Of a DNA stretch of 64,000 nucleotides, positions 23,428-42,899 are shown one piece after another (position 1 is the stretch's first letter; each line of letters begins with the position of its first letter). Source of the DNA: Nitrincola sp. (GTDB taxonomy: Bacteria > Pseudomonadota > Gammaproteobacteria > Pseudomonadales > Balneatricaceae); assembly GCF_048264025.1 (NCBI RefSeq), contig NZ_JBLXDN010000004.1, positions 30,026-94,025 of the forward strand, written 5' to 3'. A program made the position numbers and the translations under genes. Under the pieces are notes generated by a model, which saw only the letters and a program-made list of their open reading frames with translations, had not been told where the DNA came from and did no database searches.

Positions 23428-25535
23428 AATCAGACACAATGAACCGAGTATTTTCCATGCAGTTCAGAAAAACACCTCGACAGTACACGACTGGGTACCT
23501 GACCCAGGCGATCAGAATGGCCCTAATAGGAGTGGTATGTGTGCCCATGCATACCGCCGTTCAAGCCAGCGATGTTAGTAGTCAGGTTACCAGCGTGTTC
23601 TATGATCCGGATACAGCTGTCGATCAGTTGCAACCCAACCGCACGGATATGCGCATTCCCCAGCGCATGCAGGGTCGTGTGGTGGTACGCGCGCCCCGTG
23701 CTGTTCGAGTGGATCCGGTGTTAACTGCACCGGTTGAAAATCTGGAGCAGCGGCGTTTCTCACTGGATGCTGTGCGCATGATTGACTCGCAGTTATTTGA
23801 TGAGCAGGAGTTAATGGCAGTAATGACTCCCTGGACTGAGCGCCAGTTGTCCTTCGCCGAGTTTCAATTGGCAGCGCTGACACTCCTGGAACACTTGCGT
23901 GAGCATGGCCATCCTGATGCGGTGTTACGTTTTTCTCAACTTCAGTTTCTTGAAAATCAGCAAGTGGCTGTGGCGATTGACGGTCTAACACCGACAGATA
24001 GCTATCAGGACGGTTCACCACGTATCCAGGTAGCTGGATTTGACGTGCAGGGCGTGACGCTGCTGGATAATGCTGTGGTTCAGTCTCACCTTGCCCCTTG
24101 GACGGGGCGGGCACTTAGCGTTGATGAATTGAGTGAAGCGGTTGAATCAGTTGCTCAGTTGCTGCGTGATCAGGGTTATGCCTTGGCGCAGGCCTGGTTG
24201 CCACCGCAGGAAATTACTGATGGCCAGGTTAAAATTGAGGTGCTGGAAGGGGTCGTAGACGGCGAATCCGGTCATCAAGGTATTACTGTAGCAGATACTC
24301 AACGTATCAAGTCTGAGGTGATTGCGGCTTATCTGGCGGAAGGTGTAGTGGCAGATCAGCCACTTAACATCAATGCGTTGGAGCGTCAGGTACGCCTGCT
24401 GAACGAAATGCCGGGCATTCGCAGTGTTCAGACAGACCTGGCTCCTGGGTCTGTAGCGGGTACCACACAGGTCATTGCTGAGGTTGAAGAAGACGCTCTC
24501 CTGACCTCGGCCGTCACGCTGGATAATTATGGCAGCAAATTCTCTGGTGAAGAGCGTCTGGGGTTAAACCTGAACCTGAACAGTCCGATGGGCTATGGTG
24601 AGCAGTTTTTTGTCAATTATACTGGTTCTGAAGGAACCAATAGCTACAAGCTGGGCGTGCATGCCCCTGTGGGTTACTCCGGTTTGCGCATGGGGGCATC
24701 CTATGCCGCAATGGATGTAAAGCTCAACGAGGGTAGTATTGCGCCGCTTAATCAGAGCAGTGACTCGGAGTCTTTCTCCCTATTTGCCAATTATCCACTG
24801 GCCCGTAGTGCGGCACGCAATATCGATCTGTTTGCCAGCCTGGATCATAAATCCTATCAAAACAACTACCCGGATTTTGGTTTTTTTGACAATCAGCGTG
24901 ATATTACCAGCCTGACAGTCGGTGCCAGTGGTAACCAGATAGACCGCTATCAAGGACGAACAGGTTGGGGTGTTTCCTTGACTCAGGGCGACTTGTCTTT
25001 GAAGGGCAGTGGTGACTCAAGCACTGAAGGCAGTTTCAGCAAGGGTAACTTCAATATTTCCAGACTGCAGGCTTTGCCAGCCGATCAATGGTTTGTTTAT
25101 GCCAGTATGAGTGGGCAGCTAGCCAGTGGCAATCTTGATAGTGCCGAAAAATTTCAGCTAGGCGGACCGATGGGTGTACGCGCCTGGCCAGTAGGTGAAG
25201 CGATTGGTGATCATGGCTGGTTGGCCAATCTGGAACTGCGTCGCAATCTGGGTAATCACGGCGATGCTAATTTCGAAGCCTTTGGTTTTTATGATATCGG
25301 TGGCGTTACCCAGTATGCCAACTCAGCGGATGCTCCAGCCTATTCAGGTCCAAACACCTATGAACTTGGTGGCTATGGTGTCGGGCTAAGCATGACTTAC
25401 AGCGAAACAGGCAATGTACGTCTGGTGTATGCCCAGAAAGACCGTAGTAACCCCAACCCCACAGCCAGTGGCACAGACAGTGATGGCACTGATCAGTCAG
25501 GACGTATCTGGCTGATTGGTACCCTGTTATTCTGA
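23424..25535 (+). CDS. TpsB (ShlB/FhaC/HecB-family) two-partner-secretion outer-membrane transporter with POTRA domains
   Basis: ATG 23424 overlaps the giant-gene stop (ATGA, 23424-23427); a TTG at 23415 is the alternative start. Signal-like MALIGVVCVPMHTAVQA. POTRA-like blocks (FDVQGVTLLDNAVVQSHLAPWTGRALSVDELSEAVESVAQLLRDQGYALAQAWLPPQEITDGQVKIEVLEG). The beta-barrel ends in an aromatic residue (...IWLIGTLLF). Confidence 0.9.
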   Translation: MKSDTMNRVFSMQFRKTPRQYTTGYLTQAIRMALIGVVCVPMHTAVQASDVSSQVTSVFYDPDTAVDQLQPNRTDMRIPQRMQGRVVVRAPRAVRVDPVLTAPVENLEQRRFSLDAVRMIDSQLFDEQELMAVMTPWTERQLSFAEFQLAALTLLEHLREHGHPDAVLRFSQLQFLENQQVAVAIDGLTPTDSYQDGSPRIQVAGFDVQGVTLLDNAVVQSHLAPWTGRALSVDELSEAVESVAQLLRDQGYALAQAWLPPQEITDGQVKIEVLEGVVDGESGHQGITVADTQRIKSEVIAAYLAEGVVADQPLNINALERQVRLLNEMPGIRSVQTDLAPGSVAGTTQVIAEVEEDALLTSAVTLDNYGSKFSGEERLGLNLNLNSPMGYGEQFFVNYTGSEGTNSYKLGVHAPVGYSGLRMGASYAAMDVKLNEGSIAPLNQSSDSESFSLFANYPLARSAARNIDLFASLDHKSYQNNYPDFGFFDNQRDITSLTVGASGNQIDRYQGRTGWGVSLTQGDLSLKGSGDSSTEGSFSKGNFNISRLQALPADQWFVYASMSGQLASGNLDSAEKFQLGGPMGVRAWPVGEAIGDHGWLANLELRRNLGNHGDANFEAFGFYDIGGVTQYANSADAPAYSGPNTYELGGYGVGLSMTYSETGNVRLVYAQKDRSNPNPTASGTDSDGTDQSGRIWLIGTLLF

Positions 25536-31500: not shown

Positions 31501-32965
31501 AGCGCTGGAGGCTGATCAAGCGGCTGGTGTGATTACCCTGCAAGCGTTGCAAGGGGGTGTCCAGTCAGGCAATGCAGCCATCAGCACCGACGCCTTGAGA
31601 CTGGTTGCGGCCCAGAGCAGCGATCTGAGTCATGCCGGCAATCAACTAAACCGTGTGGCGGTGCAGTTGTCGCAGACTCATGCCGACTTCGAGTTAGTGA
31701 ACCAGAGCGGTTTTACCCTTGACAGGGTGATCACCAGTCTTGGGCACAGCGAGAGCCAGGGGCAAACGGATGGCATTCTCACCGCCGGTGGGAATATAAA
31801 CCTGCGGATTAGTGGTAGCGGGGATCTGCAACTCGCACAACAGCTATCCACGGGTTCTCGACAGCAAGGACGTGTCAGCTTAAACGCTGCAGATGGCTCT
31901 TTACTGCGCACGGCAACCGCTGGAATGATTACTGCTAATCAGCTGCAATTGCAGGCAAGTGGGGATGCGCTGCTGACGCAGCCGCAGAATGCGCTGAATA
32001 CAGCTTCTACAACACTCTTCCGTACCGAAAATGCCAATCAGGTAGCAGTTTTGGCAGCAGACCTGGGCGGCGACCTAATGTTTGCGGGTCTGGGGAGTCT
32101 GGAAGTTGGCCAGGTGCTGACGGATGGTGTTCAGGCTGATAATGTCTGGATACGTGCTCAGCAGGATCTCAGGCTGACTCAATCGGTAGTTGCTGACGCG
32201 ACTGGATTGCGTCCAGTGATATTGTCGGCGGGTAATCAATTTTTCAACCAGACGGGTCAGGGTACTGATGCAATTCAGGCTCAGGGTGGGTGGTTGATCT
32301 ATGAGCAGAGCGTCAATGGCTTTACCCAGCGGCTGGCTGGGTTGGTACCCGATTTCAGCTTTTTCAGCACTAGCTACGAACTGCAACGTCCAGGCAATGT
32401 TAGCTTGATGGGTAACGGTTATCTGGTGGGTACGCCGATTGCCGATCCAGAACAGTATCTGCGTCTTCCGGGAACAGAGAACAACACCAGTGGTAACCCT
32501 TTGACAGAGGGTGCAGCGTCTCAGCAGCCCAGTCCTTTGCTGGTATCCCTGGCACCGGTTATCGAGTCAGATCCAGATACCAGCTATGGCATGACGCTGT
32601 CGGTACTGCCTGCCGAAAGCGGATTTGCCAGTCTGACAACCCACTCAACGGGTGGACGTACCCTGGTAGCGCCTGTCGCTATGCAGGTTAGTGCGGATAA
32701 GCCGTTCCAGACCTTGCTGGGTCGTATACTGGGCGATGCAGAGTTGATTGGTGTTTCGCTGGTTGACGGTTCGCCATTACCGGATACACTGCAACTGCTG
32801 GGTAAGGGGCCTTCATTGCGACTGGTTGGCAGCCTGCCTTTGAGCAGCTCACCGTTGTTTATACGACTGGCCATGCAGCATCCGCACAGCGGTGAACCAC
32901 AATGGGTGGATATCCTGATTGAGATCACTGCGCCTGAAGACGACACTGAAACAACAATTATCTAA
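25550..32965 (+). CDS. TpsA exoprotein, filamentous-haemagglutinin-like (N-terminal TPS secretion domain plus long beta-helical repeats)
   Basis: Extended signal peptide. TPS domain LPNGGQIVHGQGAISQAGNVMNVQQNTQNMITNWNSFNVGSQATVNFHQPGASSTVLNRVTSGDPSQIHGQINANGNVIIANPAGVMFG. The body has recurring ...NQI..L.A...GD..L.N...L.I..V... beta-helix-type units. Confidence 0.9.
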   Translation: MKKNRKYNASVRAFTPRLLPLLIASAISPMTAIAAPDANELPNGGQIVHGQGAISQAGNVMNVQQNTQNMITNWNSFNVGSQATVNFHQPGASSTVLNRVTSGDPSQIHGQINANGNVIIANPAGVMFGQSARVDVGGLMAAGQDIADQDFVEGNLQLDKMSAGGQVINQGQIHTRSGGFVILAADQVSNSGRIEAPEGTVALLAGEQARVELTAGGLIGIRVDGETATAAIQNTGVLVSDGGKVLIQSRQATGALAAAVNQTGIIRANSVAENEGRIIIDGGQGDVLLAGRVEATGLEPDLSGGYISATGDRVLVSGELDASGANAGGEVYLGGGWQGQDAAIAEARQVHIEMGARVTADATVEGDGGQIALWSSEVTTHAGVISARGAGDGQGGAVETSSRGALGVTGEVDVSATTGQGGLWLLDPENITVVTPGGVNWDGAGAGNVSVSNTSIQNTLNTGGNVILQADDSITIAANISKTSGGDARLTFDAGGNITLNTGIDISATTGRLHLDFGTTLPSTGTAFINGRLATNGGTVTFWKDAQMGASNPVSTQITGIVGGTGPYTSGDIIFKQDLLLAASDANVTLGAQGQSDGGFTGLGGDIRIEGDIYSVEAANQLLRPQSLTLDTRGTSAGAIVLGSDASNFVGGNGQSALRQLSFLGPQTITLNAGLINLLSPSGAVITAGSTLGTPELQLNAAHTIININGGTVSGVTGYTDYVQDTFDIRGMSTAESLVINSDRSIKILNQQIAADRAEGMDVILNPFVAADALGGAVIMLEAAILTNGGNIFLGGASNLTNAGVVNNADVDQFAAGFAGDSDSRTDGVFLQNVQLDSRGTDTDGLINISGRAPLAQSAGAGVRIAGAATRIESGRNDIQVIGRVTTQTNAGNKDGVIIGEGSAARSLLATSSGNLIVEGDASAVVNPSGGTRYNGLMLSSGVLLRTETGDIQLTGRGGGGNQNFIQENHGIRMEDLNTSVISESGNILLLGASGGKTSDQGENSYGIYAAGNAMYIGRDQNRSTAAGDIVFVGDSMQFVNTSDQRLQVSSSGHLVIRPEHDDTNIHLGNAGTRPELNGVSTLYLGENWFNGSALGVFLPGPVITASNVSTNVQQLSIQGNAGGAFTLVIGEQETAAITYTTNLTDLRDQIQAAIQGITGHEGATVSISGSNLRINFTAAPASLVVAGGDTRGFEAITLGRSDLTGQIQVNAPTTFRDDVTFLSGTHGSDYQANMVINSALTVQRQPNSTQHGLLTLVANALDKRALVAKGLITANQLNLLGAGQFIATASNQIAGFSAEVEGDVTLRNNQSLQITENESLWLDAIDYAGNPVLTTPTAQTTTGITLTGGRQLEVLLDTGDLRQSENVFVESGKVSLVTGGGRIIQENNAIIRAANLWLSATTGISALHSDNEIDALAGNFTGSAGLEFSNAQTLSIDGVSIDQYRADTASTSLEGQVNTTESDRNGLRGATGASGGTLAVVVRQGDLLQGATEGSSQLRAQRAVLLADQGSLLLQNQTNQISILTAKVNADNEDITVFNAQAMTLGSVTGLSEALITGGTQVGAQAAEGGNITLATVNGTLTVARDVMTLGSGNIDLRAGGTASNLAIVPESGQLASISSGSGQIQLLAGQSITTQSTSDASAEVSTAGNVMLQAGSAIGSQQNRIELSGVDTLAATAGNGSIWLRSLGTDPIILGQVNALNSAQLVGGAVTDLAGLITQQGNGNITLTTQGGDIRVVSALNANGSGYVDLRTAGTGNIDINGATITSATGTLQLVAGGAIGTNTLTGTQAELATAGQVLLSSGGQIGTETQRIEIASAAQLASQSLGSQFIAHSGDDLAISQVNAVNSSSELDRSVTSLSGMNAGQGSVIDLDVDQALSLNAGISTTTTAGIVRLAAASISQLVDSGSEILTQGLQLISRVGDLRLENTHNSVTTLAARAAAGASYTNLGNLQVDTVSGVQGITAATDITLRSVEGDLTLLQALEADQAAGVITLQALQGGVQSGNAAISTDALRLVAAQSSDLSHAGNQLNRVAVQLSQTHADFELVNQSGFTLDRVITSLGHSESQGQTDGILTAGGNINLRISGSGDLQLAQQLSTGSRQQGRVSLNAADGSLLRTATAGMITANQLQLQASGDALLTQPQNALNTASTTLFRTENANQVAVLAADLGGDLMFAGLGSLEVGQVLTDGVQADNVWIRAQQDLRLTQSVVADATGLRPVILSAGNQFFNQTGQGTDAIQAQGGWLIYEQSVNGFTQRLAGLVPDFSFFSTSYELQRPGNVSLMGNGYLVGTPIADPEQYLRLPGTENNTSGNPLTEGAASQQPSPLLVSLAPVIESDPDTSYGMTLSVLPAESGFASLTTHSTGGRTLVAPVAMQVSADKPFQTLLGRILGDAELIGVSLVDGSPLPDTLQLLGKGPSLRLVGSLPLSSSPLFIRLAMQHPHSGEPQWVDILIEITAPEDDTETTII

Positions 32966-32987
32966 CAGCACCCTAGAGGATCAATGC

Positions 32988-33290
32988 ATGAGTGATGAAA
33001 ACGAACTGAAATCAGCCGCACAAGCTAACCCTGCCCAGTCGCCCAAAATCCACTGGGACGACAGTGAAATGCAGACTAACTATTCCAATGTCTGCAATGT
33101 CATGGGTACGCGTGAGGAGATCATGTTGCTGTTCGGTTCCAATCAGGCCTGGCAAACGGGTCAGACCGAAGTGAAGGTTAAATTATCCAATCGTATTCTG
33201 CTGACACCCCATGCGGCGAAACGCCTCAAGGTATTGCTGGAAATGGGCCTGAAAGAATATGAAACCAGATTCGGTGAAGTCAAACTCTGA
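32988..33290 (+). CDS. DUF3467-family small protein (100 aa)
   Basis: AGAGGA sits 7 nt upstream of ATG 32988. YSNVCNVMGTREEIMLLFG ... RILLTPHAAKRLKVLLEMGLKEYETRFGEV matches the DUF3467 pattern as I remember it. The longer ORF from 32919 would overlap the tpsA 3' end and was not used. Confidence 0.75.
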   Translation: MSDENELKSAAQANPAQSPKIHWDDSEMQTNYSNVCNVMGTREEIMLLFGSNQAWQTGQTEVKVKLSNRILLTPHAAKRLKVLLEMGLKEYETRFGEVKL

Positions 33291-35082
33291 TATTGCTGTG
33301 ACAGAATCATCCAACGACTGGCTCGGACAGCTACAACAGGCGTCTGAGCCAGATTTTTTTGTACGTTGGCTGGCGTTGTTACAGCAGGAGTTGCCAGGTC
33401 TTGAAGAGGCCGTATTGGTATTGGGACCAGCTGATCAGGGGCCTTTCAAGCCCATTGTGACACATCCACAGAACACCCCCTGTTCATCGGTGTTGATGCG
33501 CTTGTGCGAACAGGTTATGCAACTACGCCGTCCGTTGAGTCAGCGTAATGAGTCTGTGACCCACTGGGTAGTGCCTATTCAACAGGGTGGTGCACTACTG
33601 GGGGTATTGGGTCTGACGGCTAAGAGTCTCTCGACACAGCAACGCCAATGGCTGCAGTGGGGCCTGGGGTGGATACTGACCCGTACCGAGACTTATCAGC
33701 AGGCTGGAGACAGTGAGCTGAGTGAACGTCTGATGGTGCTGCTGGATCTGTTGATGTCCTCTGTTGGAGGGCAGTCATTGCAGGATGCTTGTCAGGCTGT
33801 TTTGTCTCAGGCTGCTGTGAATCTGGGTTGTGATCGAATAGCGCTGGGCTTTGCTACCGGGCAGAGTGTTCGCATGGTAACCCTCTCCAACAGTGCTGAA
33901 TTCACCCGCAGAATCGATCTGGTGCAGTGTATTGAAGGTGCCATGAACGAGGCCGTGGACCAGGGGCATAGTCTATGCTGGCCGCAGCAACAGACCAGTC
34001 TCGATACCTTCAGAGCACATCAGGCGTTAATTCGTGAGCAGGGTAATCACACGGTATTGACGGTACCCTTCATGACGGATGTCGAAAATTACGGCGCCAT
34101 CTGTTTCGAGTGGGCTGAAGCGCCTGATGAACAGCAGCCAGAGTTAGCTGAATCCATTGCCAGTGTTGTTGGCCGCGTGCTGTTGGAAAAGCGTCAGTCA
34201 GAACTGTCTTTGCTCAGTTATCTGGGCCGGCGCGTGAAACATGTCTGCAAGCGTCTGGTCGGGCCTCGCTACCTGGGCACCAAGCTGCTGGTGTTGTTAG
34301 TGACCGTGAGCGTGATATTTTTTACCTTGGCTGAAGGCACTTTCCGCTTAGCATCAGATGCTCGCCTTGAAGGGGCATCGAACCGCACTCTTTCGGCTCC
34401 CTTTGACAGCTATGTTATGGTTGCCCATTACCGTGCGGGTCAGACCGTGGAAGAAGGCGAGGTGCTGGCCGAGCTGGATGACAGTGATCTGCGCCTTGAG
34501 CAACTTCGCTGGCAGAGCCAGTTAGCACAGTTTGAACGTCAAATGCGCCAGTCCCAGGCGCAACGCGATACGGCTCAGGCAAGGGTTGCTGCCGCACAGA
34601 CCGAGCAGGCCGAAGCTCAACTGGCACTGACCAACTCATTGCTCAGCCGCACGCAGATTCGCGCACCCTTTACGGCGCTGATTACGCGAGGTGATCTATC
34701 CCAAGACTTGGGCCTGCCGGTTACCAAAGGGCAAGTGCTGTTTGAGCTGGCGCCACTGGATGAATATCGTTTAGTCCTGGATCTGGCAGAAACTGATATG
34801 GCACATATTCGTGAAGGGCAGCAAGGCCAGTTGGTTCTGAAAGCCTTTCCAGAGGCCAGAATCGATTTCGAGGTGATTAGCGTAACGCCCGTGGCCGAAG
34901 CTCGTGATGGCAAGAACCTGTTTCGCGTTGAAGCTGAAATCGCTCAGCTGTTACCCGCTATGCGTCCTGGTATGGAAGGTGTGGCAAAAGTGGAGGTCAG
35001 TCAGCAGCGTTTGATCTGGATATGGACACGTACACTGGTAGACTGGGCACGTCTGCAATGGTGGAAGTGGTTGGGGCGCTAA
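33259..35082 (+). CDS. Tandem GAF-like cytoplasmic domains, 1 TM, then a periplasmic HlyD-family adaptor
   Basis: The ATG at 33259 overlaps the upstream gene by 32 nt; an in-frame GTG at 33298 is the alternative start. GAF-like blocks (ACQAVLSQAAVNLGCDRIALGF ... VLTVPFMTDVENYGAICFEW). TM LLVLLVTVSVIFFTLA. HlyD features: lipoyl-like hairpin VAHYRAGQTVEEGEVLAELDD, a coiled coil, and TQIRAPFTALITR. Confidence 0.8.
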   Translation: MKPDSVKSNSDIAVTESSNDWLGQLQQASEPDFFVRWLALLQQELPGLEEAVLVLGPADQGPFKPIVTHPQNTPCSSVLMRLCEQVMQLRRPLSQRNESVTHWVVPIQQGGALLGVLGLTAKSLSTQQRQWLQWGLGWILTRTETYQQAGDSELSERLMVLLDLLMSSVGGQSLQDACQAVLSQAAVNLGCDRIALGFATGQSVRMVTLSNSAEFTRRIDLVQCIEGAMNEAVDQGHSLCWPQQQTSLDTFRAHQALIREQGNHTVLTVPFMTDVENYGAICFEWAEAPDEQQPELAESIASVVGRVLLEKRQSELSLLSYLGRRVKHVCKRLVGPRYLGTKLLVLLVTVSVIFFTLAEGTFRLASDARLEGASNRTLSAPFDSYVMVAHYRAGQTVEEGEVLAELDDSDLRLEQLRWQSQLAQFERQMRQSQAQRDTAQARVAAAQTEQAEAQLALTNSLLSRTQIRAPFTALITRGDLSQDLGLPVTKGQVLFELAPLDEYRLVLDLAETDMAHIREGQQGQLVLKAFPEARIDFEVISVTPVAEARDGKNLFRVEAEIAQLLPAMRPGMEGVAKVEVSQQRLIWIWTRTLVDWARLQWWKWLGR

Positions 35083-37238
35083 TGTCTTCTCTTTTTTCAG
35101 CGTCCTGGTATCGCTTGGCAGATCTGGTCCCTCGGCTACGTACACAAACCCGGATTTTTCGGCATGTCTATCGTGGTCAGCGCTGGCATGTCATTCAGGA
35201 TTTAGCCAGTGGCAAATTCTTGCGTCTGAACCCCACAGCTTACAGTATCCTCTCGCTGGTGGATGGACAGTCTACGCTTGATCAAATCTGGAAACAGGCG
35301 GTTGAGCAGTTGCAGGATGATGCGCCGAGTCAGGATGAGGTGCTGCAGTTGATGACGCAGTTAAACCAGATCGGTGTACTGACCAGCAATCGAACTCCCG
35401 ATATTGAAGAGCTTAGCGAACGCTCTATCAAAGCACGACGCAATCGTGTTAAACAATATATTGCCAACCCATTGGCGCTAAGGGTGCCATTGATTGATCC
35501 GGATCGTTTTTTGCAGCACTTAGTGGGTCATATTCCAGTCTGGGCACGACCGCTGCTGCTGACTATCTGGTTAGTCACTGTGGTGTTCGGTATCAGTCTT
35601 GCGGCACTTCACTGGCCCGAACTGACCGGTGATCTGACACGACTGGTATTTACCCCGGAGTATATTTTTACGCTGATCCTGGTGTTTCCACTGATCAAAG
35701 CGATCCATGAATTGGGACATGGTATTGCGATCAAACTGTTTGGTGGCCAGTGTCATGAAATGGGGTTGATGTTTCTGGTGATGGTCCCGATTCCCTACGT
35801 TGATGCCAGTCATGCCATAGCATTTAAGAGCAAATACCAGCGTATGCTGGTGGGCGCTGCCGGGATGATGATTGAGCTATTTGTTGCCAGTCTCGCACTG
35901 TGGCTCTGGACCTGGACACAGCCGGGACTGCTGAGGGTCTTTCTACACGATATTGTGATCCTCGCGGGTGTGGTAACGCTGTTATTCAACTTGAACCCTT
36001 TATTAAGATTCGATGGTTACTACATTTTCAGTGACTGGCTGGAAATTCCCAATCTGGGGAATAAAGCGAATCAGTATTTTGGCTATTTACTGAAACGTTA
36101 CTTGTTGCGTATTGACCGAGGCTTACAGCCGCCACGTCTAACGGCTGGAGAACCGGCTTGGTTGATTAGCTTTGCACTGTTGTCTTTTGTATATCGGATG
36201 TTCATTGTCGGGATGATTCTGCTGTTTGTCGCCTCCCAGTTTTTTGTCATCGGGGTGCTGCTGGCGGCCTATGCGTTCTTTTTGATGATTTTGATGCCGT
36301 TGAGTCGTACCCTCAAGACAGCCTTTAGCGATCCATTAATCAGTGAAAAGCGTCCTCGTCTGTACCTGGTCAGTTTCACGGCTGTTAGTCTGCTGGTAGG
36401 GTTGGTCGGGGTGCTGCCCTTGCCATCAGCGACCTTTGTAGAGGGGGTGGTGTGGATGCCGGAGCAGTCACAGGTACGCGCACGGACCGACTGTTTTGGT
36501 CAGCAGGTACTACACAACCCCGGGGTCGTGAAAGCCGATGAGCCCCTGCTATACTGTGATGAGCCTGTATTGCCAGCCGAGCTGCAGGAAACGCAGGCAC
36601 GTTTGGCTGAGCTGGATGCGGAGTTGCTGCTGGCGAGAGGGACAGACAGAGTCCTGGCACAAAATCTTCTGGAAGAGCGCCAGCATGTTGAGCAGCGTGT
36701 TGCTACGCTTGAACAGCGTATTGATGCCTTCGAAATTCGCAGTCCACATGCGGGTGAATTTGTGATGTCATCGCCTGATGACTTTATGGGTCGCTGGTAT
36801 CATCGTGGCGATATTATTGGCTATCTGCTGGATCCTAGCCACTTCACTTTACTTGTTGCTGTTGATCAGGCCGATGTTGACCGTATTCGCAGTGACAGTG
36901 TCAGTATTGCTATGCGTTCTGCCGACTCAGTACATCAGTCACACCCACTTCGAATATTGCGAGCTGTGCCAGCAGCCACGCGTGATCTGCCAAGCCTGGC
37001 GTTGTCATTGCAAGGGGGAGGGCGTATTGGCTTAAGCCCTGACGGAGCGCCGGGAAGTCGGCCTCAGGCACTCAATCCGGTATTTCTGTTCGAACTGGAA
37101 CTGCTGCAGCCCGAAAACTTTGCGGTACAGGCTTTGGGTGGACGTGTCTATGTTCGCTTTGCGCATACCGATGAGTCAGCGGCACGGCAGATATACCGTC
37201 ACCTGCGTGAACTCTTTATTCGTCGTTTTGGAATCTGA
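35082..37238 (+). CDS. PqqD/RRE-like domain, polytopic M50 (site-2-protease-type) metallopeptidase and C-terminal HlyD-like domain, fused
   Basis: Start at the ATG of TAATG (35080-35084), overlapping the upstream stop. N-terminal FLRLNPTAYSILSLVDGQSTLDQIWKQAVEQL...VLQLMTQLNQIGVL is PqqD-like. HELGH at 35706-35720; NPLLRFDG at 35994-36017. Several TM helices. The C-terminal coiled coil plus FEIRSPHAGEF is HlyD-like. Confidence 0.8.
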   Translation: MSSLFSASWYRLADLVPRLRTQTRIFRHVYRGQRWHVIQDLASGKFLRLNPTAYSILSLVDGQSTLDQIWKQAVEQLQDDAPSQDEVLQLMTQLNQIGVLTSNRTPDIEELSERSIKARRNRVKQYIANPLALRVPLIDPDRFLQHLVGHIPVWARPLLLTIWLVTVVFGISLAALHWPELTGDLTRLVFTPEYIFTLILVFPLIKAIHELGHGIAIKLFGGQCHEMGLMFLVMVPIPYVDASHAIAFKSKYQRMLVGAAGMMIELFVASLALWLWTWTQPGLLRVFLHDIVILAGVVTLLFNLNPLLRFDGYYIFSDWLEIPNLGNKANQYFGYLLKRYLLRIDRGLQPPRLTAGEPAWLISFALLSFVYRMFIVGMILLFVASQFFVIGVLLAAYAFFLMILMPLSRTLKTAFSDPLISEKRPRLYLVSFTAVSLLVGLVGVLPLPSATFVEGVVWMPEQSQVRARTDCFGQQVLHNPGVVKADEPLLYCDEPVLPAELQETQARLAELDAELLLARGTDRVLAQNLLEERQHVEQRVATLEQRIDAFEIRSPHAGEFVMSSPDDFMGRWYHRGDIIGYLLDPSHFTLLVAVDQADVDRIRSDSVSIAMRSADSVHQSHPLRILRAVPAATRDLPSLALSLQGGGRIGLSPDGAPGSRPQALNPVFLFELELLQPENFAVQALGGRVYVRFAHTDESAARQIYRHLRELFIRRFGI

Positions 37239-37241
37239 TCC

Positions 37242-39221
37242 ATGTATGCATTGCAAACACGCACTGTTCAGTATCCGCAACGTACAGATTGGCATGAAGA
37301 TCCCTTGTTAGTGCGATTCTGGGACCGCGGTGCGACGTTGTTTCGTCGGCTGATTCTGATGAATGAAGCGCGACAAAAGGCATTCGTACGGGCGGTGTCA
37401 AAGTGTGAAATGGAACTGCAGGGGGCAACGTCTGAAGTGTTACAGCAGGCTTTATGTGATGTGCGCCTGCATTTGCGTCGGGAGGGTCTACAGCAGCGGC
37501 ATTTGGCACAGGCTTTTGCACTGGTGCGTGTGGCATCGCAACAGACGCTAGGGTTACGCCATCATGATGTACAGATTCGTGGCGGCCATGCCTTAGTGCA
37601 GGGTTTTCTGATCGAAATGAATACCGGCGAAGGTAAAACACTGACGGCTACCCTGGCCGCTGCTGTGGCGGCACTGTCAGGTCGACAAGTTCAGGTGGTG
37701 ACGGTCAATGATTATCTGGCTCAACGGGATGCTACTGAAATGCAGCCTCTCTATGAATGGTTGGGGCTACGCATCGCCTGGGTGCTTGAACAGGCCGGAC
37801 CGGCTGAACGACGCCAGGCCTATCAGGCTGATATTGTGTACTGCACCGGAAAAACGCTGACCTTTGACTACCTCAAGGACCGTATCGCTCTGGATGATCG
37901 TGTATCGCCTTTAAAAATGTTACTGGATGCCTACACCGGTCGCTGGCAACAACAGGTGCTCTTGCCAGGATTGCAGTTTGCCATAGTGGATGAAGTGGAC
38001 AGCATTCTGATCGATGAAGCACGCACACCGCTGATTATTTCATCCTCTGGCGGCTCAGCAGAAGAAGACGCTTTTTATGTCAGCGCGATTGAATTCGCCC
38101 AGCAACTGCGACAGGCAGAACATTTTCAATTCAGCGAAAACCGTCAGTTGATTGACCTGACACTGGCTGGACGTCATCTGCTGGAGCAACTGACTGCTGA
38201 AGCGGAAGGGCTGTGGTGTAACCGTTTTCGGCGAGAAGAAGCGATATTGCAAGCACTCAGTGCATTGCATCGCTTTCAACGGGATATTCATTATATTGTT
38301 CGCGACGACAAGGTGCTGATTGTTGATGAACATACTGGGCGGATCATGCCAGATCGTTCCTGGGAGAAAGGTATGCAGCAGCTGATTGAGGTCAAGGAGA
38401 GTGTTTCCTTGACACCGCCTCGTGTCACTCTGGCAAAAATCAGTTTTCAGCTGTTCTTTCGTCGCTTTCTGCAACTTTCCGGAATGTCGGGCACCTGTCG
38501 TGAAATTGCCGGGGAGATCAGTCGGGTGTACAACCTGCGGATGATCCGTATCCCGCCGCATAAACCCAGCCAACGTGTACAACATGCCAATCAGTTATTC
38601 GCCGATGTAGAGCAAAAATGGCTGGCAGTTGAAGCCTGTATTATTGAGTGCCAGCAACGCGGGCAGCCGGTGCTGGTTGGGACCCGTTCGATTTTAGCCG
38701 CAGATACCTTATCATCGCGCCTGCAGTCCCGTGGCGTTGAGCACCAATTATTACATGCCCGCCAGGATGAAACTGAGGCAGAAATTGTTGCACAGGCAGG
38801 GCAGCGCGGGCGCGTCACCATCGCTACGAATATGGCTGGACGAGGAACCGATATCAAACTGCAAGCGGGTGTAGCTGAACTGGGTGGTTTGCATGTACTG
38901 ATCACTGAGTTGCATGATAATCAGCGTATCGATCGGCAATTAATTGGCCGTTGTGCTCGACAGGGCGAACCCGGTAGTTGGCAGGAAATATTGTCACTTG
39001 AGGATGAGCTGGTGGCCAACTGGTTACCTGTATTAAATCGTCTACTGAGCCTGTTGTTGCGCTCTGCTCCTGAAAATCGAGCAATTCAATGGATGGCCCG
39101 CCGCTATTACCGATCCGCACAGTGGATGCTGGAGCGCTTACACCGGCGTATTCGTGCCAAACTGCTTAAGGCCGAATTCAATTTGCGCCGGTCACTTTCT
39201 TTTACCGGTAAGATGGAGTAA
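37242..39221 (+). CDS. Truncated SecA-like ATPase (659 aa; NBD1, reduced preprotein-binding region, NBD2; no C-terminal scaffold/wing/linker)
   Basis: Collinear with E. coli SecA. LGLRHHDVQIRGGHALVQGFLIEMNTGEGKTLTATLAAAVAAL (GEGKT at 37626-37640), VVTVNDYLAQRD, FAIVDEVDSILIDEARTPLIIS (DEVD at 37989-38000), YIVRDDKVLIVDEHTGR, GMSGT, PVLVGT, TIATNMAGRGTDIKL, GGLHVLITELHDNQRIDRQLIGRCARQGEPGS. The protein ends about 75 aa after the last motif. Confidence 0.9.
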   Translation: MYALQTRTVQYPQRTDWHEDPLLVRFWDRGATLFRRLILMNEARQKAFVRAVSKCEMELQGATSEVLQQALCDVRLHLRREGLQQRHLAQAFALVRVASQQTLGLRHHDVQIRGGHALVQGFLIEMNTGEGKTLTATLAAAVAALSGRQVQVVTVNDYLAQRDATEMQPLYEWLGLRIAWVLEQAGPAERRQAYQADIVYCTGKTLTFDYLKDRIALDDRVSPLKMLLDAYTGRWQQQVLLPGLQFAIVDEVDSILIDEARTPLIISSSGGSAEEDAFYVSAIEFAQQLRQAEHFQFSENRQLIDLTLAGRHLLEQLTAEAEGLWCNRFRREEAILQALSALHRFQRDIHYIVRDDKVLIVDEHTGRIMPDRSWEKGMQQLIEVKESVSLTPPRVTLAKISFQLFFRRFLQLSGMSGTCREIAGEISRVYNLRMIRIPPHKPSQRVQHANQLFADVEQKWLAVEACIIECQQRGQPVLVGTRSILAADTLSSRLQSRGVEHQLLHARQDETEAEIVAQAGQRGRVTIATNMAGRGTDIKLQAGVAELGGLHVLITELHDNQRIDRQLIGRCARQGEPGSWQEILSLEDELVANWLPVLNRLLSLLLRSAPENRAIQWMARRYYRSAQWMLERLHRRIRAKLLKAEFNLRRSLSFTGKME

Positions 39222-39224
39222 ATC

Positions 39225-39950
39225 ATGCGTTGGATGAAACAACAGATAGCTGCCGGGTTTTGCGTACTTGCCGTTGCTGTACCTATTCAGGCAACTGAGC
39301 TGTCAGTGCTGAGTTGTTTGCTGGAACCTTCACTGGATGCCGAGTTAGGTGTGCCTGTTGAGGGTGTGCTGGCTAAGGTTCATGCTGAGCGTTCGGTAAG
39401 GGTAGAGCAGGGTGCCGTATTGGCAGAGCTGGACCTCTCGGTAGAGCAAGCGATAATTAGCATGCAGCGTGCTCGCGAAAATTATGCCAGTCGGCGTCTG
39501 GAGCGCATTCAGGAGTTGCAATCAGGCAACCTGATACCCGCTCAGGAAGTGGATGACATCCGCACTGAGCAGCAACTGGCCCGCCTTGAGCTGGCTGTCC
39601 AGCAGGAACAATTGGAACTGCGCCGAGTGGTTAGTCCATTTTCCGGTATCATTGTGGAACGCTATGCTGATGTCGGTGACTTGATACAAAAAAGTCATAT
39701 TTTTCGATTAGTGCAGTTGGACCCGCTTTATGTTGAGGTGGTGATGACACTGGATCAATTTGGTCGGGTCGTTCCCGGCGACAGGTATCAGGTACATTTG
39801 CAACATCTAGAGACACAGCATGATGCTGAAGTGATTGCTGTTGATCCGATTATAGATGCCGGAAGTGGTACCTTTCGCGTGCGTCTGTCATTACCCAATC
39901 CGGATTCGCATATCCCGGCAGGTTTGAGTTGTAGTATTAACCCACTTTAA
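39225..39950 (+). CDS. Small (241 aa) periplasmic HlyD/MFP-type adaptor with signal peptide
   Basis: ATG lies 3 nt after the SecA-like stop. Signal peptide AAGFCVLAVAVPIQA. Lipoyl-like VEGVLAKVHAERSVRVEQGAVLAELD; short coiled coil; RRVVSPFSGIIVERYADVGD; beta-barrel-like FRVRLSLPNPD. Confidence 0.75.
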   Translation: MRWMKQQIAAGFCVLAVAVPIQATELSVLSCLLEPSLDAELGVPVEGVLAKVHAERSVRVEQGAVLAELDLSVEQAIISMQRARENYASRRLERIQELQSGNLIPAQEVDDIRTEQQLARLELAVQQEQLELRRVVSPFSGIIVERYADVGDLIQKSHIFRLVQLDPLYVEVVMTLDQFGRVVPGDRYQVHLQHLETQHDAEVIAVDPIIDAGSGTFRVRLSLPNPDSHIPAGLSCSINPL

Positions 39951-40008
39951 CTTTACGGATTGCGCATAAGGCTCTATCCGACATGAATAACTGATCAGAG
40001 ATTTAAGT

Positions 40009-40752
40009 ATGTATAAGAAACTGGTTCCACTGAACAAAGAACATCATCAACAATTGCGTATCCAGCCGATCAATGGCTTTCAGTTTGCAGCTGGTGTGCA
40101 CGTTGCCGCCGTTATGCTGCATGAGTTTGCCCGCGCCTCCGCGATTTACCCGATAGTGTTTCTTGAAGATCAGGCTCAGGATAAATTCTATCCCGTTGCT
40201 CTATTAGGTCTGGAGCAGAATGAGAATCTGTTTGTGACCGATGAAGGACGTTGGCAAGCCTCCTACATTCCCGCTGTAATTCGGCGTTATCCATTTGCAT
40301 TGGCTCGTTCGGGTGAAGACGAAGTGTTTACCGTCTGTATTGACGAAGACGCCGAATTGGTTAGTACCCAGGAAGGTAATCCGTTGTTCTCTGATACCGG
40401 TGAACCTGCTGAGGTGATTGAACAGGTCAAACGCTATTTGGGTGAGTTACAGCAAATGGAAGTGATCACTGAAGCATTTTGTCGGTTTCTGCAAAGCCAC
40501 AATCTGTTTACACCGCTAAATATGCAGGTTCGTGTGGGTAATAAAGTACAAAATGTGACCGGGTGCTATGTTGTGAATGAGCAGCGTTTTGCCAATCTTT
40601 CTGACGAGCTTTTTCTACAGATTCGTCATCAGCACTATCTGGCACCCATCTATGCACACCTGACTTCACTGTCGCGTACTGAAAATCTGGCGCTACTTAA
40701 GCAGGGTATTACATCGGTTAGTCAACCCTCGGATGACGACCAGGTTCATTAA
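40009..40752 (+). CDS. SapC-family protein
   Basis: HEFARASAIYPIVFLEDQAQDKFYPVALLGLEQNENLFVTDEGRWQASYIPAVIRRYPFAL is the characteristic SapC-family core. Confidence 0.85.
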   Translation: MYKKLVPLNKEHHQQLRIQPINGFQFAAGVHVAAVMLHEFARASAIYPIVFLEDQAQDKFYPVALLGLEQNENLFVTDEGRWQASYIPAVIRRYPFALARSGEDEVFTVCIDEDAELVSTQEGNPLFSDTGEPAEVIEQVKRYLGELQQMEVITEAFCRFLQSHNLFTPLNMQVRVGNKVQNVTGCYVVNEQRFANLSDELFLQIRHQHYLAPIYAHLTSLSRTENLALLKQGITSVSQPSDDDQVH

Positions 40753-40967
40753 TGATTCAAAATCAACAGGGAATATTCATTTTTTGTTCAGGACATATAG
40801 CCGTATCGACACTAGACTGGTTTATAAACAGCGTATCCCCTTCAAAGACTCGCGTGCAACAGGAGATGGGGCCTGAACGAACAAGGATGTTCGTGACAGG
40901 TTCTGGCAGAAAGTCTTAATTTCTGTCACTATAAATTTCTCTATTAATACCAATACGGCGAGTTAAG

Positions 40968-41462
40968 ATGATCAAAATGAATAAACTTCGTTCTTCACTA
41001 TTACTGACTTTATTTTTTTCGTCAGTGACCTTCGCACAAACACCGCAAACAACAGAGTATCAGGACTGGGTTGGCATTTGTGCTGAGGTTCAGGGTCAAG
41101 AGCGTTGTGAAATACAGCAAGTGCTGAATATGGAGAACGAACAGGGTAATACTCGACTGCTCAGAGCAACAATAAGCAAGCTAGATAATCAGTTGATTAT
41201 GCAACTGCTTTTGCCTCTGGGACTGGATGTTCGTCCGGGCGTAGTGATGCAGATCGATGAAGGTGCCGAGTTTGGCGCGCCATTTTTGACCTGCGTTCAG
41301 GAAGGTTGTCTGGTTGCAGTACCCCTGGACGAAAATCGCTTGACTGAACTGCGTTCGGGTAGTGTTGCCAAGGTGGGTTTCCGGCCTTTTAATACAGAAC
41401 AAACACTGGTAGTAGAACTCTCGTTGATGGGCTTTACGCGTGCCAGCCAGACGGTAAAATAA
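40968..41462 (+). CDS. Invasion-associated locus B (IalB)-family periplasmic protein
   Basis: Signal peptide LLLTLFFSSVTFAQ. YQDWVGICAEVQGQERCEIQQ ... FLTCVQEGCLVAVPLDENRLTELRSGSVAKVGF is the IalB pattern. ATG 40977 is an alternative start. Confidence 0.75.
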   Translation: MIKMNKLRSSLLLTLFFSSVTFAQTPQTTEYQDWVGICAEVQGQERCEIQQVLNMENEQGNTRLLRATISKLDNQLIMQLLLPLGLDVRPGVVMQIDEGAEFGAPFLTCVQEGCLVAVPLDENRLTELRSGSVAKVGFRPFNTEQTLVVELSLMGFTRASQTVK

Positions 41463-41566
41463 TCTCAACGCATTGGGATGTTGCAAATCAAGGTTAGGCC
41501 GTATTCGGGTTTAGTTTAAGTGATTTTTTGCTATGCTAAGGTTAGTGTATTCAAATTGAATTTTGT

Positions 41567-42355
41567 TTGAAAAGGAGCCTTGTATTGGCTACCCAGTTTC
41601 CAGAATCCTTGACTAAACCCGGTTGCGGCTATTGTTTTGTTCCATTGGGCTTCGAGTTTACGTTTGCTTTTCAACCCATTGTGGATATGGAAGCGCGTGA
41701 GATTTTTGGCTATGAAGCCTTGGTGCGAGGCCCCCAGGCTGAATCCGCTTATAGTATTCTTAATCGTATCAATGATGAAAATCGCTATGCTTTTGACCAG
41801 GCTTGCCGGGTTAAGGCTATCCACCTGGCCAGTGAGTTAGGGCTGGATAAGGTATTAAGCATCAACTTTTTGCCTAATGCGGTGTATGAACCGGCGCATT
41901 GTATTCGCAGTACCCTGGCGGCCGCGCGAGAAAGTGGTTTTCCGATTGAAAAGCTCATGTTTGAAATTACCGAATCAGAATATGTGTATGATCGGGCTCA
42001 CCTGACCAATATTTTTAAGCATTATGAAAAACAGGGCTTTATTACCGCGCTGGATGACTTTGGTGCCGGCCATGCCGGGCTGAATATGCTGGCCAGCTTT
42101 ATACCCCAAATCCTCAAAATCGATATGGAGCTAGTGCGTGATATCGATAGCCATTCCGTCAAGCAGATTATTGTTGAGGGTCTGCTTGGCATGTGTGCAA
42201 AGTTAGGGATTACAGTGCTGGCTGAAGGCGTGGAAACCGAAGCCGAAATGCTGTACTTCCGTAAGCATGGGGTTAGGTTGATGCAGGGTTACTATTTTGC
42301 CAAGCCAGGATTTGAAAGCCTGCCCGGATATGATTTTTCTACACAGTCAATCTGA
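41567..42355 (+). CDS. Stand-alone EAL-domain c-di-GMP phosphodiesterase (start codon uncertain: TTG 41567 or TTG 41584)
   Basis: FQPIVD, YEALVRG, NFLPNA, FEITESE, DDFGAGHAGLNMLA, LKIDMELVRD, AEGVETE and QGYYFAKP: all canonical EAL catalytic motifs are present. Confidence 0.85.
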   Translation: MKRSLVLATQFPESLTKPGCGYCFVPLGFEFTFAFQPIVDMEAREIFGYEALVRGPQAESAYSILNRINDENRYAFDQACRVKAIHLASELGLDKVLSINFLPNAVYEPAHCIRSTLAAARESGFPIEKLMFEITESEYVYDRAHLTNIFKHYEKQGFITALDDFGAGHAGLNMLASFIPQILKIDMELVRDIDSHSVKQIIVEGLLGMCAKLGITVLAEGVETEAEMLYFRKHGVRLMQGYYFAKPGFESLPGYDFSTQSI

Positions 42356-42425
42356 CGCTTTTTGTTATACGTAACCTGTTGATCAGATGCTAGCATGCCA
42401 GTTTTTACTCAGTGGTATGCCTAGT

Positions 42426-42899
42426 ATGAAAGCGTTTTTGTTTCGTTATCCTAACCTGTTTCGTCGAGTGATGAATCTCTGGCCGCCACTGTTTTTTAGT
42501 GGCATCAAGCTGGTAACCATCAGTTCTGACTTCCGTTCGGCACGAGTGGATCTGAAGTGGCGCCCCTGGACTAAAAATATCAATGCCAGCCAGTATGGCG
42601 GCAGTCTCTTCTCTATGACTGATCCTTACTACGCCCTGTTGTTGTTCGGTTGTCTGGGCTATGAGCGCTATATTATCTGGGATAAATCAGCCGATATCGA
42701 TTTTATTTCACCTGGTATCGGACGTCTGACTGCCGAGTTTCATCTTGAGGATGAGCAACTGCACCAGATTCGTGAAATGACCGCTGAGGGCGATAAGTGT
42801 TTTCCTGAGTTTGTGGTGTATATTCGCGATCAGCAGGGCACCCTGGTTGCCAAGGTGACCCGACGTCTGTATGTGCGTTTACATGCGAAGCACCGTTAA
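42426..42899 (+). CDS. DUF4442 / hotdog-fold thioesterase-like protein
   Basis: MKAFLFRYPNLFRRVMNLWPPLFFSGIKLVTISSDFRSARVDLKWRPWTKN...GGSLFSMTDPYYALLL resembles the DUF4442 (YiiD C-terminal-like) family. Start chosen at ATG 42426. Confidence 0.6.
   Translation: MKAFLFRYPNLFRRVMNLWPPLFFSGIKLVTISSDFRSARVDLKWRPWTKNINASQYGGSLFSMTDPYYALLLFGCLGYERYIIWDKSADIDFISPGIGRLTAEFHLEDEQLHQIREMTAEGDKCFPEFVVYIRDQQGTLVAKVTRRLYVRLHAKHR

Follow-up and report, generated by a model that had tools for sequence, protein, structure and literature searches.

How giant proteins that lack a Sec-type signal peptide may leave a diderm cell is the question raised by a cassette of five genes found in Nitrincola sp. The cassette lies in a 64-kb stretch of this genome, referred to below, at its full length, as the window, and encodes a small DUF3467 protein, a membrane-anchored HlyD-type adaptor with a cytoplasmic GAF domain (GAF-adaptor), a fusion of a PqqD/RRE-like domain, an M50-type metalloprotease and a periplasmic adaptor (M50 fusion), a shortened SecA (short SecA) and a short periplasmic adaptor. 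The same gene string contains a TolC-family outer-membrane factor and a 6188-aa giant protein with an N-terminal LEPR-XLL motif. An initial annotation, made from the DNA letters, had proposed that the SecA-like motor and the two membrane-anchored adaptor fusions form the inner-membrane unit of a TolC-coupled conduit, and this reading is supported by the comparative data presented here. The cassette appears to be the best candidate so far for the export machine of the LEPR-XLL giants. Together with the TolC-family channel, it would constitute a dedicated export and maturation system for LEPR-XLL proteins, a reading to which gene neighbourhoods and structure models lend a probability of roughly 55%.

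Conservation of the cassette and lack of a pump

The distribution of the cassette was established by scanning the GTDB, with one genome per species, using a profile of the M50 fusion alone. At least 586 loci were confirmed and the best 80 were analysed. As these 80 loci were selected by the M50 fusion only, the other genes found around it are unbiased observations. Among loci with enough flank to be counted, a GAF-adaptor gene was adjacent to the M50 fusion in 73 of 73 and a SecA-like gene in 63 of 64, which places their co-occurrence beyond chance, as the first reading of the locus required. The short adaptor was present in at least 45 of 57 loci and DUF3467 in at least 31 of 67, both counts being tblastn lower bounds for small, divergent proteins. 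The 80 loci include alpha-, beta- and gamma-proteobacteria, Nitrospira, Myxococcota, Planctomycetota, Methylomirabilia, Acidobacteriota and Bacteroidota (a metagenome-assembled genome of the Flavobacteriales), with Bordetella hinzii, Achromobacter piechaudii, Methylobacterium, Bradyrhizobium and Mesorhizobium among the carriers. The same order of five genes is found in Marinobacterium sediminicola, Magnetococcus sp. PR-3 and Limnobacter sp., with a giant gene (11,395-11,635 aa where called) directly 5' of the cassette, and no transporter is encoded within 10 kb in these three Pfam-annotated neighbourhoods. The cassette is a deeply conserved module and not a local oddity.

A divergent subgroup (L011, L013, L041, L045, L060 and L077) possesses SecA-like proteins that are 23-29% identical to that of the window, and its short adaptor is sometimes encoded on the opposite strand. 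The SecA-like protein of L013 is still recognized by Pfam as SecA_DEAD plus preprotein cross-linking domain (PPXD), and this locus carries two copies of DUF3467 (5452-5817 and 7660-7980).

Known tripartite assemblies ending in TolC are energized by a pump of the ATP-binding cassette (ABC), resistance-nodulation-division (RND) or major facilitator superfamily (MFS) type. In the window, the region 2175-40752 contains no gene of these three types, as first described. The search was extended to 85 loci (1.48 Mb) by tblastn with AcrB, EmrB and MacB of Escherichia coli and with the two ABC exporters of the window; neither an RND nor an MFS gene was found in them, and ABC ATPase domains occurred in only four of the 85, kilobases from the cassette. 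The missing pump is thus not a loss peculiar to the Nitrincola copy. The window itself includes, outside the region 2175-40752, two adjacent half-transporters (55301-58704), each with ABC_membrane and ABC_tran domains, forming a heterodimeric exporter of the CydDC/MsbA type. This pair was considered as the missing pump and rejected, being located 15 kb away with unrelated genes on both strands in between and having no equivalent near related cassettes.

Giant proteins and the LEPR-XLL tag

The LEPR-XLL motif, also given as RRLxxExLExRxLLA, is an orphan motif proposed in 2004 as a novel export signal (Studholme et al., as cited in PMC8567305), and 52 genes of Tuwongella immobilis carry it (PMC8567305). 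Two proteins of Chlorobium chlorochromatii, Cag_663 (36,806 aa) and Cag_665 (20,647 aa), are the largest known in prokaryotes; the LEPRxLL giants of this species 'lack known signals' and have sapC and tolC as neighbours, and Cag_1676, a secA gained by horizontal transfer, belongs to the co-expression cluster of Cag_663 and Cag_665 (bioRxiv 10.64898/2026.03.19.712371). Should Cag_1676 be a short SecA with adjacent M50 and GAF-adaptor genes, this cluster would provide independent transcriptomic support for the system proposed here. In the literature searched, no export machinery has been linked to the motif.

In the giant of the window, the tag is situated at aa 47-67 (nt 4999-5061; ...VELLEQRFMLSGD...) and is recognized by the LEPR-XLL model NF012209 with 22.8 bits, above the cutoff of 17. 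It is followed by a DUF4347 domain (aa 103-264, 183.9 bits), then by VCBS/cadherin-like and RTX repeats. No hydrophobic segment was detected in the first 300 aa, and the protein has no Sec-type signal peptide.

The link suspected from the window between such LEPR/DUF4347 giants and the cassette holds in both directions. Starting from the cassette, an open reading frame (ORF) of at least 1200 aa abuts it in 33 of the 38 loci with both flanks visible; in most cases this ORF extends beyond the 5' edge of the locus, its stop codon closely preceding the cassette. Where its start can be seen, a LEPR-XLL N-terminus stands beside the cassette, in eight loci as well as in the window. Three LEPR-bearing DUF4347 proteins are encoded on long contigs, two of them with an adjacent cassette, and one of these two sits by a divergent operon for OEP, short adaptor, GAF-adaptor, M50 fusion and SecA. 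DUF4347 was also evaluated as the defining feature of the substrates and discarded, since a tagless DUF4347 protein of Vreelandella has no cassette nearby and many tagged N-termini are devoid of DUF4347.

Starting from the tag, metagenome contigs were scanned for DNA encoding E-x-L-E-P-R-L-L-[L/F]-S-A-D, and 107 of the 121 instances proved to lie N-terminally in an ORF that was long or open at its end. For 70 of these 107, the contig extended at least 2 kb upstream; with the remainder of each locus taken up by the giant gene, the upstream side is the only one visible. In this flank, 13 of the 70 carried a gene for an M50 fusion, a SecA-like protein or a GAF-adaptor, 23 carried one of these core genes, DUF3467 or SapC, and 28 carried any component, adaptor and TolC included. 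By chance, even with every genome assumed to carry one 7-kb cassette, a random stretch of that size would overlap it in about 0.3% of cases; the enrichment is about 50-fold or more. The gene directly 5' of the tagged one is often SapC or TolC; in the window, it is TolC.

The 107 leaders share a tag placed at a median of 35 residues from the first Met, preceded by a stretch rich in R/K, with a median net charge of +6. Their extended consensus is R-R-[R/K]-x-[L/F]-x-[F/L]-E-x-L-E-P-R-L-L-L-S-A-D, and none of the 107 includes a hydrophobic 15-mer with a mean Kyte-Doolittle value of at least 1.6. Judged by this composition, the LEPR-XLL tag is not a Sec signal. In the window giant, the surroundings of the tag agree with those of the 107 metagenome instances. 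Most of the tagged proteins are giant repeat-rich surface proteins.

In one long-read metagenome locus (L089:3050-11260), the cassette and the adjacent DUF4347 giant are split into many small called genes, probably through frameshift errors. Such fragmentation explains why a database search with the N-terminus of the giant returned only 'proteins' of 220-680 aa.

RTX repeats are a hallmark of classical type I substrates, and they are present in the giant of the window and in both upstream giants checked (L040 and L082). They form the main argument for an alternative in which the giants use a distant ABC exporter and a C-terminal signal, the cassette serving only to unfold or hold the substrate, trim its N-terminus, or gate or regulate its export. 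SapC has also been tied historically to a type I operon in Campylobacter fetus, as cited in bioRxiv 10.64898/2026.03.19.712371, and Chl. chlorochromatii has many type I sets according to the same source. However, an ABC exporter was found near none of the 85 cassette loci nor of the substrate-side loci, and three adaptor-type proteins, often with their own TolC, would be redundant beside a complete type I set. Moreover, the last RTX repeat of the window giant ends about 700 aa short of the C-terminus, which is atypical for type I signals, and the feature that the giants have in common is located at their N-terminus. A mere accessory role to type I secretion is accordingly considered quite unlikely.

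Cassette proteins and their neighbours in the window

The 659-aa protein, which is 100% identical to an entry of Nitrincola sp., was first described as a SecA core ATPase with GEGKT and DEVD motifs, and it proved to be a SecA reduced to motor and clamp. It aligns to residues 35-604 only of Bacillus subtilis SecA and ends in the first scaffold helix, thus comprising nucleotide-binding domain 1 (NBD1), the PPXD, NBD2 and this first helix. No counterpart of the helical wing domain, the two-helix finger or the C-terminal tail is left in this alignment. SecA_PP_bind is matched with 92 bits in addition to SecA_DEAD, whereas the housekeeping SecA models TIGR00963 and NF009538 give 554-565 bits, over model positions of about 4-491, against cutoffs of 800-814. 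The Walker A (TGEGKT), DExD, TNMAGRGTD and GRxxRQGxPG motifs are invariant in 30 members of the short-SecA family, as are a family-specific N-terminal YPQRxDW and a C-terminal LSFSGxxE. With its motifs and PPXD intact and the SecY-engaging parts lost, the short SecA is therefore predicted to be an active motor with a clamp, stripped of the elements that engage SecY. Canonical SecA inserts its two-helix finger into SecY; no SecY-like gene was found in the window cluster or in the Pfam-annotated neighbourhoods of the three relatives named above.

The same protein could be viewed as an accessory SecA handing LEPR-XLL proteins over to SecYEG, with the M50 enzyme acting as a signal peptidase and the adaptors and TolC operating only from the periplasm to the outside. 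Gram-positive bacteria have well-established accessory SecA paralogues that work through SecYEG, and SecA2 of mycobacteria makes such a hand-over; the short protein is genuinely homologous to SecA and has kept NBD1, PPXD and NBD2; and the cassette encodes no alternative inner-membrane channel. Nevertheless, the loss of finger, wing and tail speaks against such a hand-over, and the protein remains below the cutoffs of all SecA2 family models, with 481 bits against 930 for TIGR03714, 420 against 725 for TIGR04221, 505 against 1085 for TIGR04397 and 372 against 1100 for NF012136. The tag lacks a hydrophobic core of the kind recognized by the SecYEG lateral gate, and the steady linkage to two membrane-anchored adaptor fusions points to these as partners of the motor. 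Delivery to SecYEG is thus deemed unlikely.

The M50 fusion combines three parts. The first is a PqqD/RRE winged-helix leader-binding domain (aa 23-97, nt 35148-35372), for which PF05402 scores 35.3 bits against a threshold of 23.4 and whose profile matches the PqqD structure 3g2b at E 1e-3; it is modelled with strands at 23-30, 33-40 and 46-49, then helices at 51-58, 66-80 and 84-97. The domain itself is thereby confirmed, and peptide binding is predicted. The second is a polytopic M50-type metalloprotease core (aa 155-443, nt 35544-36410). The third is a periplasmic adaptor (aa 450-718) with a lipoyl domain, an alpha-hairpin of two helices of about 26 aa and a beta-barrel. An AlphaFold2 (AF2) model built with 69 homologues reached a mean predicted local distance difference test (pLDDT) score of 87.1. 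The family comprises 5657 clusters (50% identity) at E<=1e-30, with a steady length of about 715 aa; the best 150 of the 5657 clusters are all about 650-740 aa long.

The assignment as an M50 protease is upheld by the nearest curated model, daptide_HExxH, by HExxH and NPLxxxDG motifs invariant across the 69 homologues, and by the structure model, in which HELGH and NPLLRFDG both lie in the helical core and a site-2-protease-type beta-hairpin occupies aa 227-240. It is weakened on one side, as the Pfam Peptidase_M50 family itself (PF02163) gives 19 bits, below its gathering threshold of 27.2, and the enzyme belongs to a divergent branch. Daptide_HExxH (NF041824) scores 161 bits against a cutoff of 300, its E-value of 3.9e-47 notwithstanding, and the YydH/LiaK model NF058609 scores 36.8 bits against 225. 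The HlyD-like C-terminus claimed initially is faint by sequence (E 0.02) and clear by structure, Foldseek matching the modelled module to MexA, MacA and AcrA at E of about 1e-10 with a probability of 1.00. In this model, the periplasmic part is unambiguously a true adaptor.

Among curated families, the RRE-M50 part is closest to the daptide and YydH/LiaK peptide-maturation proteases and to PqqD itself, a kinship that would suit a system maturing and exporting a small leader-bearing peptide of the RiPP type (ribosomally synthesized and post-translationally modified peptide), the giants being adjacent by accident. Yet the cassette conserves no precursor peptide, radical-SAM enzyme or other modifying enzyme, and a short peptide would not need a polypeptide motor of the SecA type. 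Giants adjacent in 33 of 38 loci and an enrichment of about 50-fold or more on the side of the tag also argue against coincidence, and a RiPP system is regarded as highly improbable.

The GAF-adaptor is organized as about 335 cytoplasmic aa, one transmembrane helix (aa 337-364) and a HlyD-type periplasmic domain (aa about 370-597). Tandem GAF-like domains had been announced for its cytoplasmic part; one GAF domain is above threshold, at aa 172-307, whereas the first half remains sub-threshold in Pfam (E 0.05) and BLASTP of one half against the other reveals no internal duplication, so that the tandem was rejected. The periplasmic domain passes the Pfam models HlyD_3 and HlyD_D23 and falls just under the cutoff of TIGR01730 (87.6 against 94.9 bits). 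The type I adaptor model TIGR01843 gives only 43 bits against a cutoff of 208.65. The 241-aa protein was confirmed as a HlyD-type adaptor with a signal peptide, having a hydrophobic segment at aa 8-33 and passing RND_mfp; by its family match, it would be the third membrane-fusion-type subunit. The DUF3467 identity of the first cassette gene is likewise secure. DUF3467 is strongly conserved beside the cassette in 36 distinct ORFs and also occurs directly 5' of LEPR genes in metagenomes. Single-sequence and profile searches of PDB sequences returned no structural homologue, and a single-sequence AF2 model was unusable (pLDDT 43.5). A role of DUF3467 as chaperone or in targeting is conjecture.

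Giant type I adhesins such as LapA are known to possess modules that retain them by the N-terminus. A GAF domain on the cytoplasmic side of one adaptor, together with cyclic di-GMP (c-di-GMP) genes near cassettes, can accordingly be interpreted in terms of control after export, following a LapG/LapD-LapA logic in which the M50 enzyme cuts an N-terminal anchor of the giant, GAF senses a nucleotide and the SecA-like ATPase extracts or unfolds the N-terminus. The c-di-GMP genes include an EAL protein in the window (41567-42355), a receiver-PAS-GGDEF-EAL protein in six GTDB loci (e.g., L071:16918-19092) and, at L092:17507-21110, a hybrid kinase with a GGDEF regulator. However, post-export control leaves the crossing of the inner membrane unexplained for giants with neither a Sec signal nor a nearby ABC exporter, and three adaptor domains with a linked TolC argue for a conduit. 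Moreover, both the RRE domain and the clamp of the short SecA are devices for capturing substrates in the cytoplasm. This explanation is therefore seen as very unlikely. Whatever the function of the cassette, the neighbouring c-di-GMP genes may be connected with the GAF domain.

In the window, the region 2175-40752 forms a single unbroken string of genes on one strand, running from the AMIN-TolC gene through the giant, a TpsB/TpsA pair and the cassette to SapC (Table 1). The initial annotation proved accurate on strand and coordinates for the five cassette genes and on the position of the TolC-family gene at the head of the string, and its domain calls were mostly upheld by Pfam and NCBIfam profile searches. 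The motifs translate as claimed, with HELGH at 35706-35720, NPLLRFDG at 35994-36017, GEGKT at 37626-37640 and DEVD at 37989-38000. Translational coupling in a fixed order is also borne out by the exact junctions, namely a 32-nt overlap (33259-33290), a TAATG overlap (35080-35084) and 3-nt gaps (37239-37241 and 39222-39224). The 32-nt overlap hinges on the choice of start codon and is not kept by relatives. Promoter and terminator counts over 32000-42500 equalled those of shuffled sequence and say nothing on operon boundaries.

Table 1. Genes of the continuous string in the Nitrincola window, and two-partner secretion pairs beside the closest related cassettes
Feature	Coordinates	Strand	Profile evidence
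Outer-membrane factor (TolC family)	2175-4805	+	TIGR01844 299.5 bits (cutoff 225.15); Pfam OEP and AMIN
Giant protein, 6188 aa, presumed substrate	4861-23427	+	NF012209 LEPR-8K, DUF4347, VCBS, RTX
TpsB (ShlB/FhaC-type) transporter	23415-25535	+	Pfam ShlB, POTRA_2
TpsA-type filamentous-haemagglutinin-like exoprotein, 2471 aa	25550-32965	+	TIGR01901 82.6 bits
DUF3467 small cytoplasmic protein, 100 aa (cassette gene 1)	32988-33290	+	PF11950 87.6 bits
GAF-adaptor, 607 aa	33259-35082	+	Pfam GAF, GAF_2, HlyD_3, HlyD_D23; TIGR01730 87.6 bits
RRE-M50-adaptor fusion, 718 aa	35082-37238	+	PqqD 35.3 bits; daptide_HExxH E 3.9e-47
Short SecA paralogue, 659 aa	37242-39221	+	SecA_DEAD 317 bits, SecA_PP_bind, P-loop_SecA
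Short periplasmic adaptor, 241 aa	39225-39950	+	RND_mfp TIGR01730 109.2 bits (cutoff 94.9), HlyD_D23, HlyD_3
SapC-family protein, 247 aa	40009-40752	+	PF07277 251 bits
TpsB/TpsA pair, relative L003	12863-21977		
TpsB/TpsA pair, relative L004	12777-21983		
TpsB/TpsA pair, relative L007	14950-18206		

The TolC-family gene ends 55 nt 5' of the giant gene. In its product, the channel (aa 457-872) is preceded by about 450 additional N-terminal residues, an unusual extension in which aa 286-365 form an AMIN domain. This peptidoglycan-associated domain, more familiar from PilQ and AmiC, is uncommon in outer-membrane efflux factors.

The two genes between the giant and the cassette encode a two-partner secretion system, with a TpsB composed of POTRA and ShlB barrel domains and a TpsA composed of a TPS domain preceded by an ordinary Sec signal peptide (hydrophobic segment aa 18-36). 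TpsB of the window has a TTG start, a 13-nt overlap with the end of the giant gene and about 200 aa before its POTRA domain. Such a pair is found beside the cassette in the closest relatives (L003, L004, L005 and L007) and in one of 38 loci of the wider set. It was considered as part of the core machine and set aside, as only the closest relatives carry it and TpsA brings its own Sec signal; TpsA/TpsB is a self-sufficient, lineage-specific neighbour system outside the conserved core.

SapC stands in or beside the cassette in seven of 38 GTDB loci, sometimes between the M50 and SecA-like genes, and directly 5' of LEPR-XLL genes in at least nine metagenome loci. It is a recurrent accessory gene of the system. 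Just 3' of SapC, the window encodes a signal-peptide-bearing member of the IalB (invasion-associated locus B) family (40968-41462), and a gene of the tryptophan-halogenase family is found near the cassette in five loci, including L013:15093-16652 (Pfam E 5e-156).

Proposed export route and its place among known systems

In the proposed route, the tag leaving the ribosome would be captured by the cytoplasmic RRE domain, by the preprotein clamp of the short SecA, or by both. The short SecA, devoid of the parts that insert into SecY, would dock on the cytoplasmic faces of the two membrane-anchored adaptor fusions and spend ATP to thread the unfolded chain N-terminus first, probably during translation. 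An N-terminal signal would make such threading possible for proteins of 6,000-36,000 aa, whereas the C-terminal signal of type I secretion would not. The M50 core would provide or gate the passage through the inner membrane and clip off the tag. The periplasmic domains of the three adaptor-type proteins, whose fold is based on a structure model for the M50 fusion and on family models for the other two, would form a tube docking to TolC. Export may be tied to a small-molecule signal through the GAF domain, with DUF3467 and SapC as possible accessory proteins. All components would thus belong to one conduit, transport being driven by ATP hydrolysis on the SecA-like protein and the tag being cleaved by the M50 enzyme. 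It is possible, though not yet to be called probable, that this amounts to a new type of double-membrane secretion, in which an ATPase derived from SecA takes the place that an ABC, RND or MFS pump has in tripartite TolC assemblies, export is addressed by LEPR-XLL and proceeds N-terminus first, and an RRE-guided M50 protease removes the tag.

Several observations weigh against this route. A TolC gene is placed next to the cassette or directly 5' of a LEPR gene in L020, L027, L050, L068, L092, L157, L162, L163 and L168, but it is adjacent within 7 kb in only three of 38 loci, and with TolC near so few loci the outer-membrane partner is mostly inferred. About 80% of the sampled metagenome LEPR N-termini have no core cassette gene in their visible upstream flank; this is what a single machine acting on many scattered substrates, or a cassette placed 3' of the giant gene, would lead one to expect. 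The RTX repeats of the giants point to a possible ABC exporter encoded elsewhere. Finally, no protein-conducting inner-membrane channel is evident in the cassette, and M50 proteases are not known to act as channels.

The system has features in common with several known machineries. With type I secretion (HlyB-HlyD-TolC, LapBCE and the exporters of giant RTX adhesins), it shares membrane-fusion-type adaptors, a TolC channel and giant repeat-rich RTX substrates without a Sec signal, and one-step export of an unfolded chain is a likely common logic. In contrast to type I secretion, no ABC transporter belongs to the cassettes and the sole NTPase is a SecA derivative; the presumed signal is an N-terminal tag instead of a C-terminal one; the GAF-adaptor stays far below the type I cutoff (43 against 208 bits); and there are three distinct adaptor-type proteins, one fused to M50 and another to GAF. 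Peptidase-containing ABC transporters, exemplified by CvaAB-TolC for colicin V, have a comparable logic, since an N-terminal leader is cut by the exporter's own protease during export through adaptor and TolC, a function that is predicted here. They differ by relying on a cytoplasmic C39 cysteine protease and an ABC motor to export peptides, whereas the cassette would rely on an RRE-guided intramembrane M50 protease and a SecA-like motor for substrates of thousands of residues.

SecA2 systems, known as SecA2/SecY2 in streptococci and staphylococci and also present in mycobacteria, Listeria and Clostridioides, likewise employ a second SecA for special substrates that are often large adhesins. 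Their SecA2 is about 760-800 aa long, retains wing and finger, and works with SecY2 or SecYEG in Gram-positive bacteria, whereas the present protein has 659 aa, occurs in diderms and is linked to adaptors and TolC. The RiPP proteases of the daptide (NF041824) and YydH/LiaK (NF058609) families share an N-terminal PqqD-like domain followed by a polytopic HExxH protease, but the M50 fusion differs in its additional C-terminal periplasmic adaptor of about 270 aa, its lack of RiPP context and its giant presumed substrates. Some giants of Omnitrophota and Actinobacteria embed SecA_DEAD and preprotein-binding domains without scaffold and wing, for which a role as an aid to self-export was suggested (bioRxiv 10.1101/2023.11.21.568195). 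There, the SecA part is inside the giant, which is encoded beside type II/IV-like secretion genes, whereas here it is a free-standing 659-aa operon protein; the embedded SecA is a parallel and not the same system.

From its domain content and modelled folds, the cassette is neither a type I system, nor a SecA2 system, nor a RiPP protease system, its modules seemingly having been borrowed from all three. By analogy, it would work most like the peptidase-containing exporter CvaAB-TolC, with SecA in place of the ABC motor and RRE-M50 in place of C39. No description of the cassette was found in a search of full-text literature from which subscription journals were largely absent, and apparent mentions of M50 in reviews on adaptors proved to be DOI or residue strings. 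No known class fits the combination, whose proposed function is deduced from comparative genomics and structure prediction. The LEPR-XLL motif was already on record as NF012209; it is carried by the giant of the window and by giants beside related cassettes, and the link to a machinery is what is added here.

The orphan LEPR-XLL signal thereby gains a specific and testable candidate machine, with orthologues in cultured and, for some, genetically tractable bacteria (Achromobacter, Bordetella hinzii, Mesorhizobium, Bradyrhizobium, Methylobacterium, Marinobacterium and Magnetococcus). If the proposal is true, it would introduce a new energizing principle for TolC-dependent export, an unexpected evolutionary re-use of SecA outside the Sec translocon, and an RRE-guided protease acting on proteins and not on RiPP peptides. 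It would also explain the export of chains too long for a post-translational route based on a C-terminal signal, the same machine serving the largest known prokaryotic proteins, such as the 36,806-aa Cag_663, and dozens of tagged planctomycete surface proteins. The tag and the cassette could together become a predictor of surface proteomes, and the machine may lend itself to engineering for the secretion of very large proteins.

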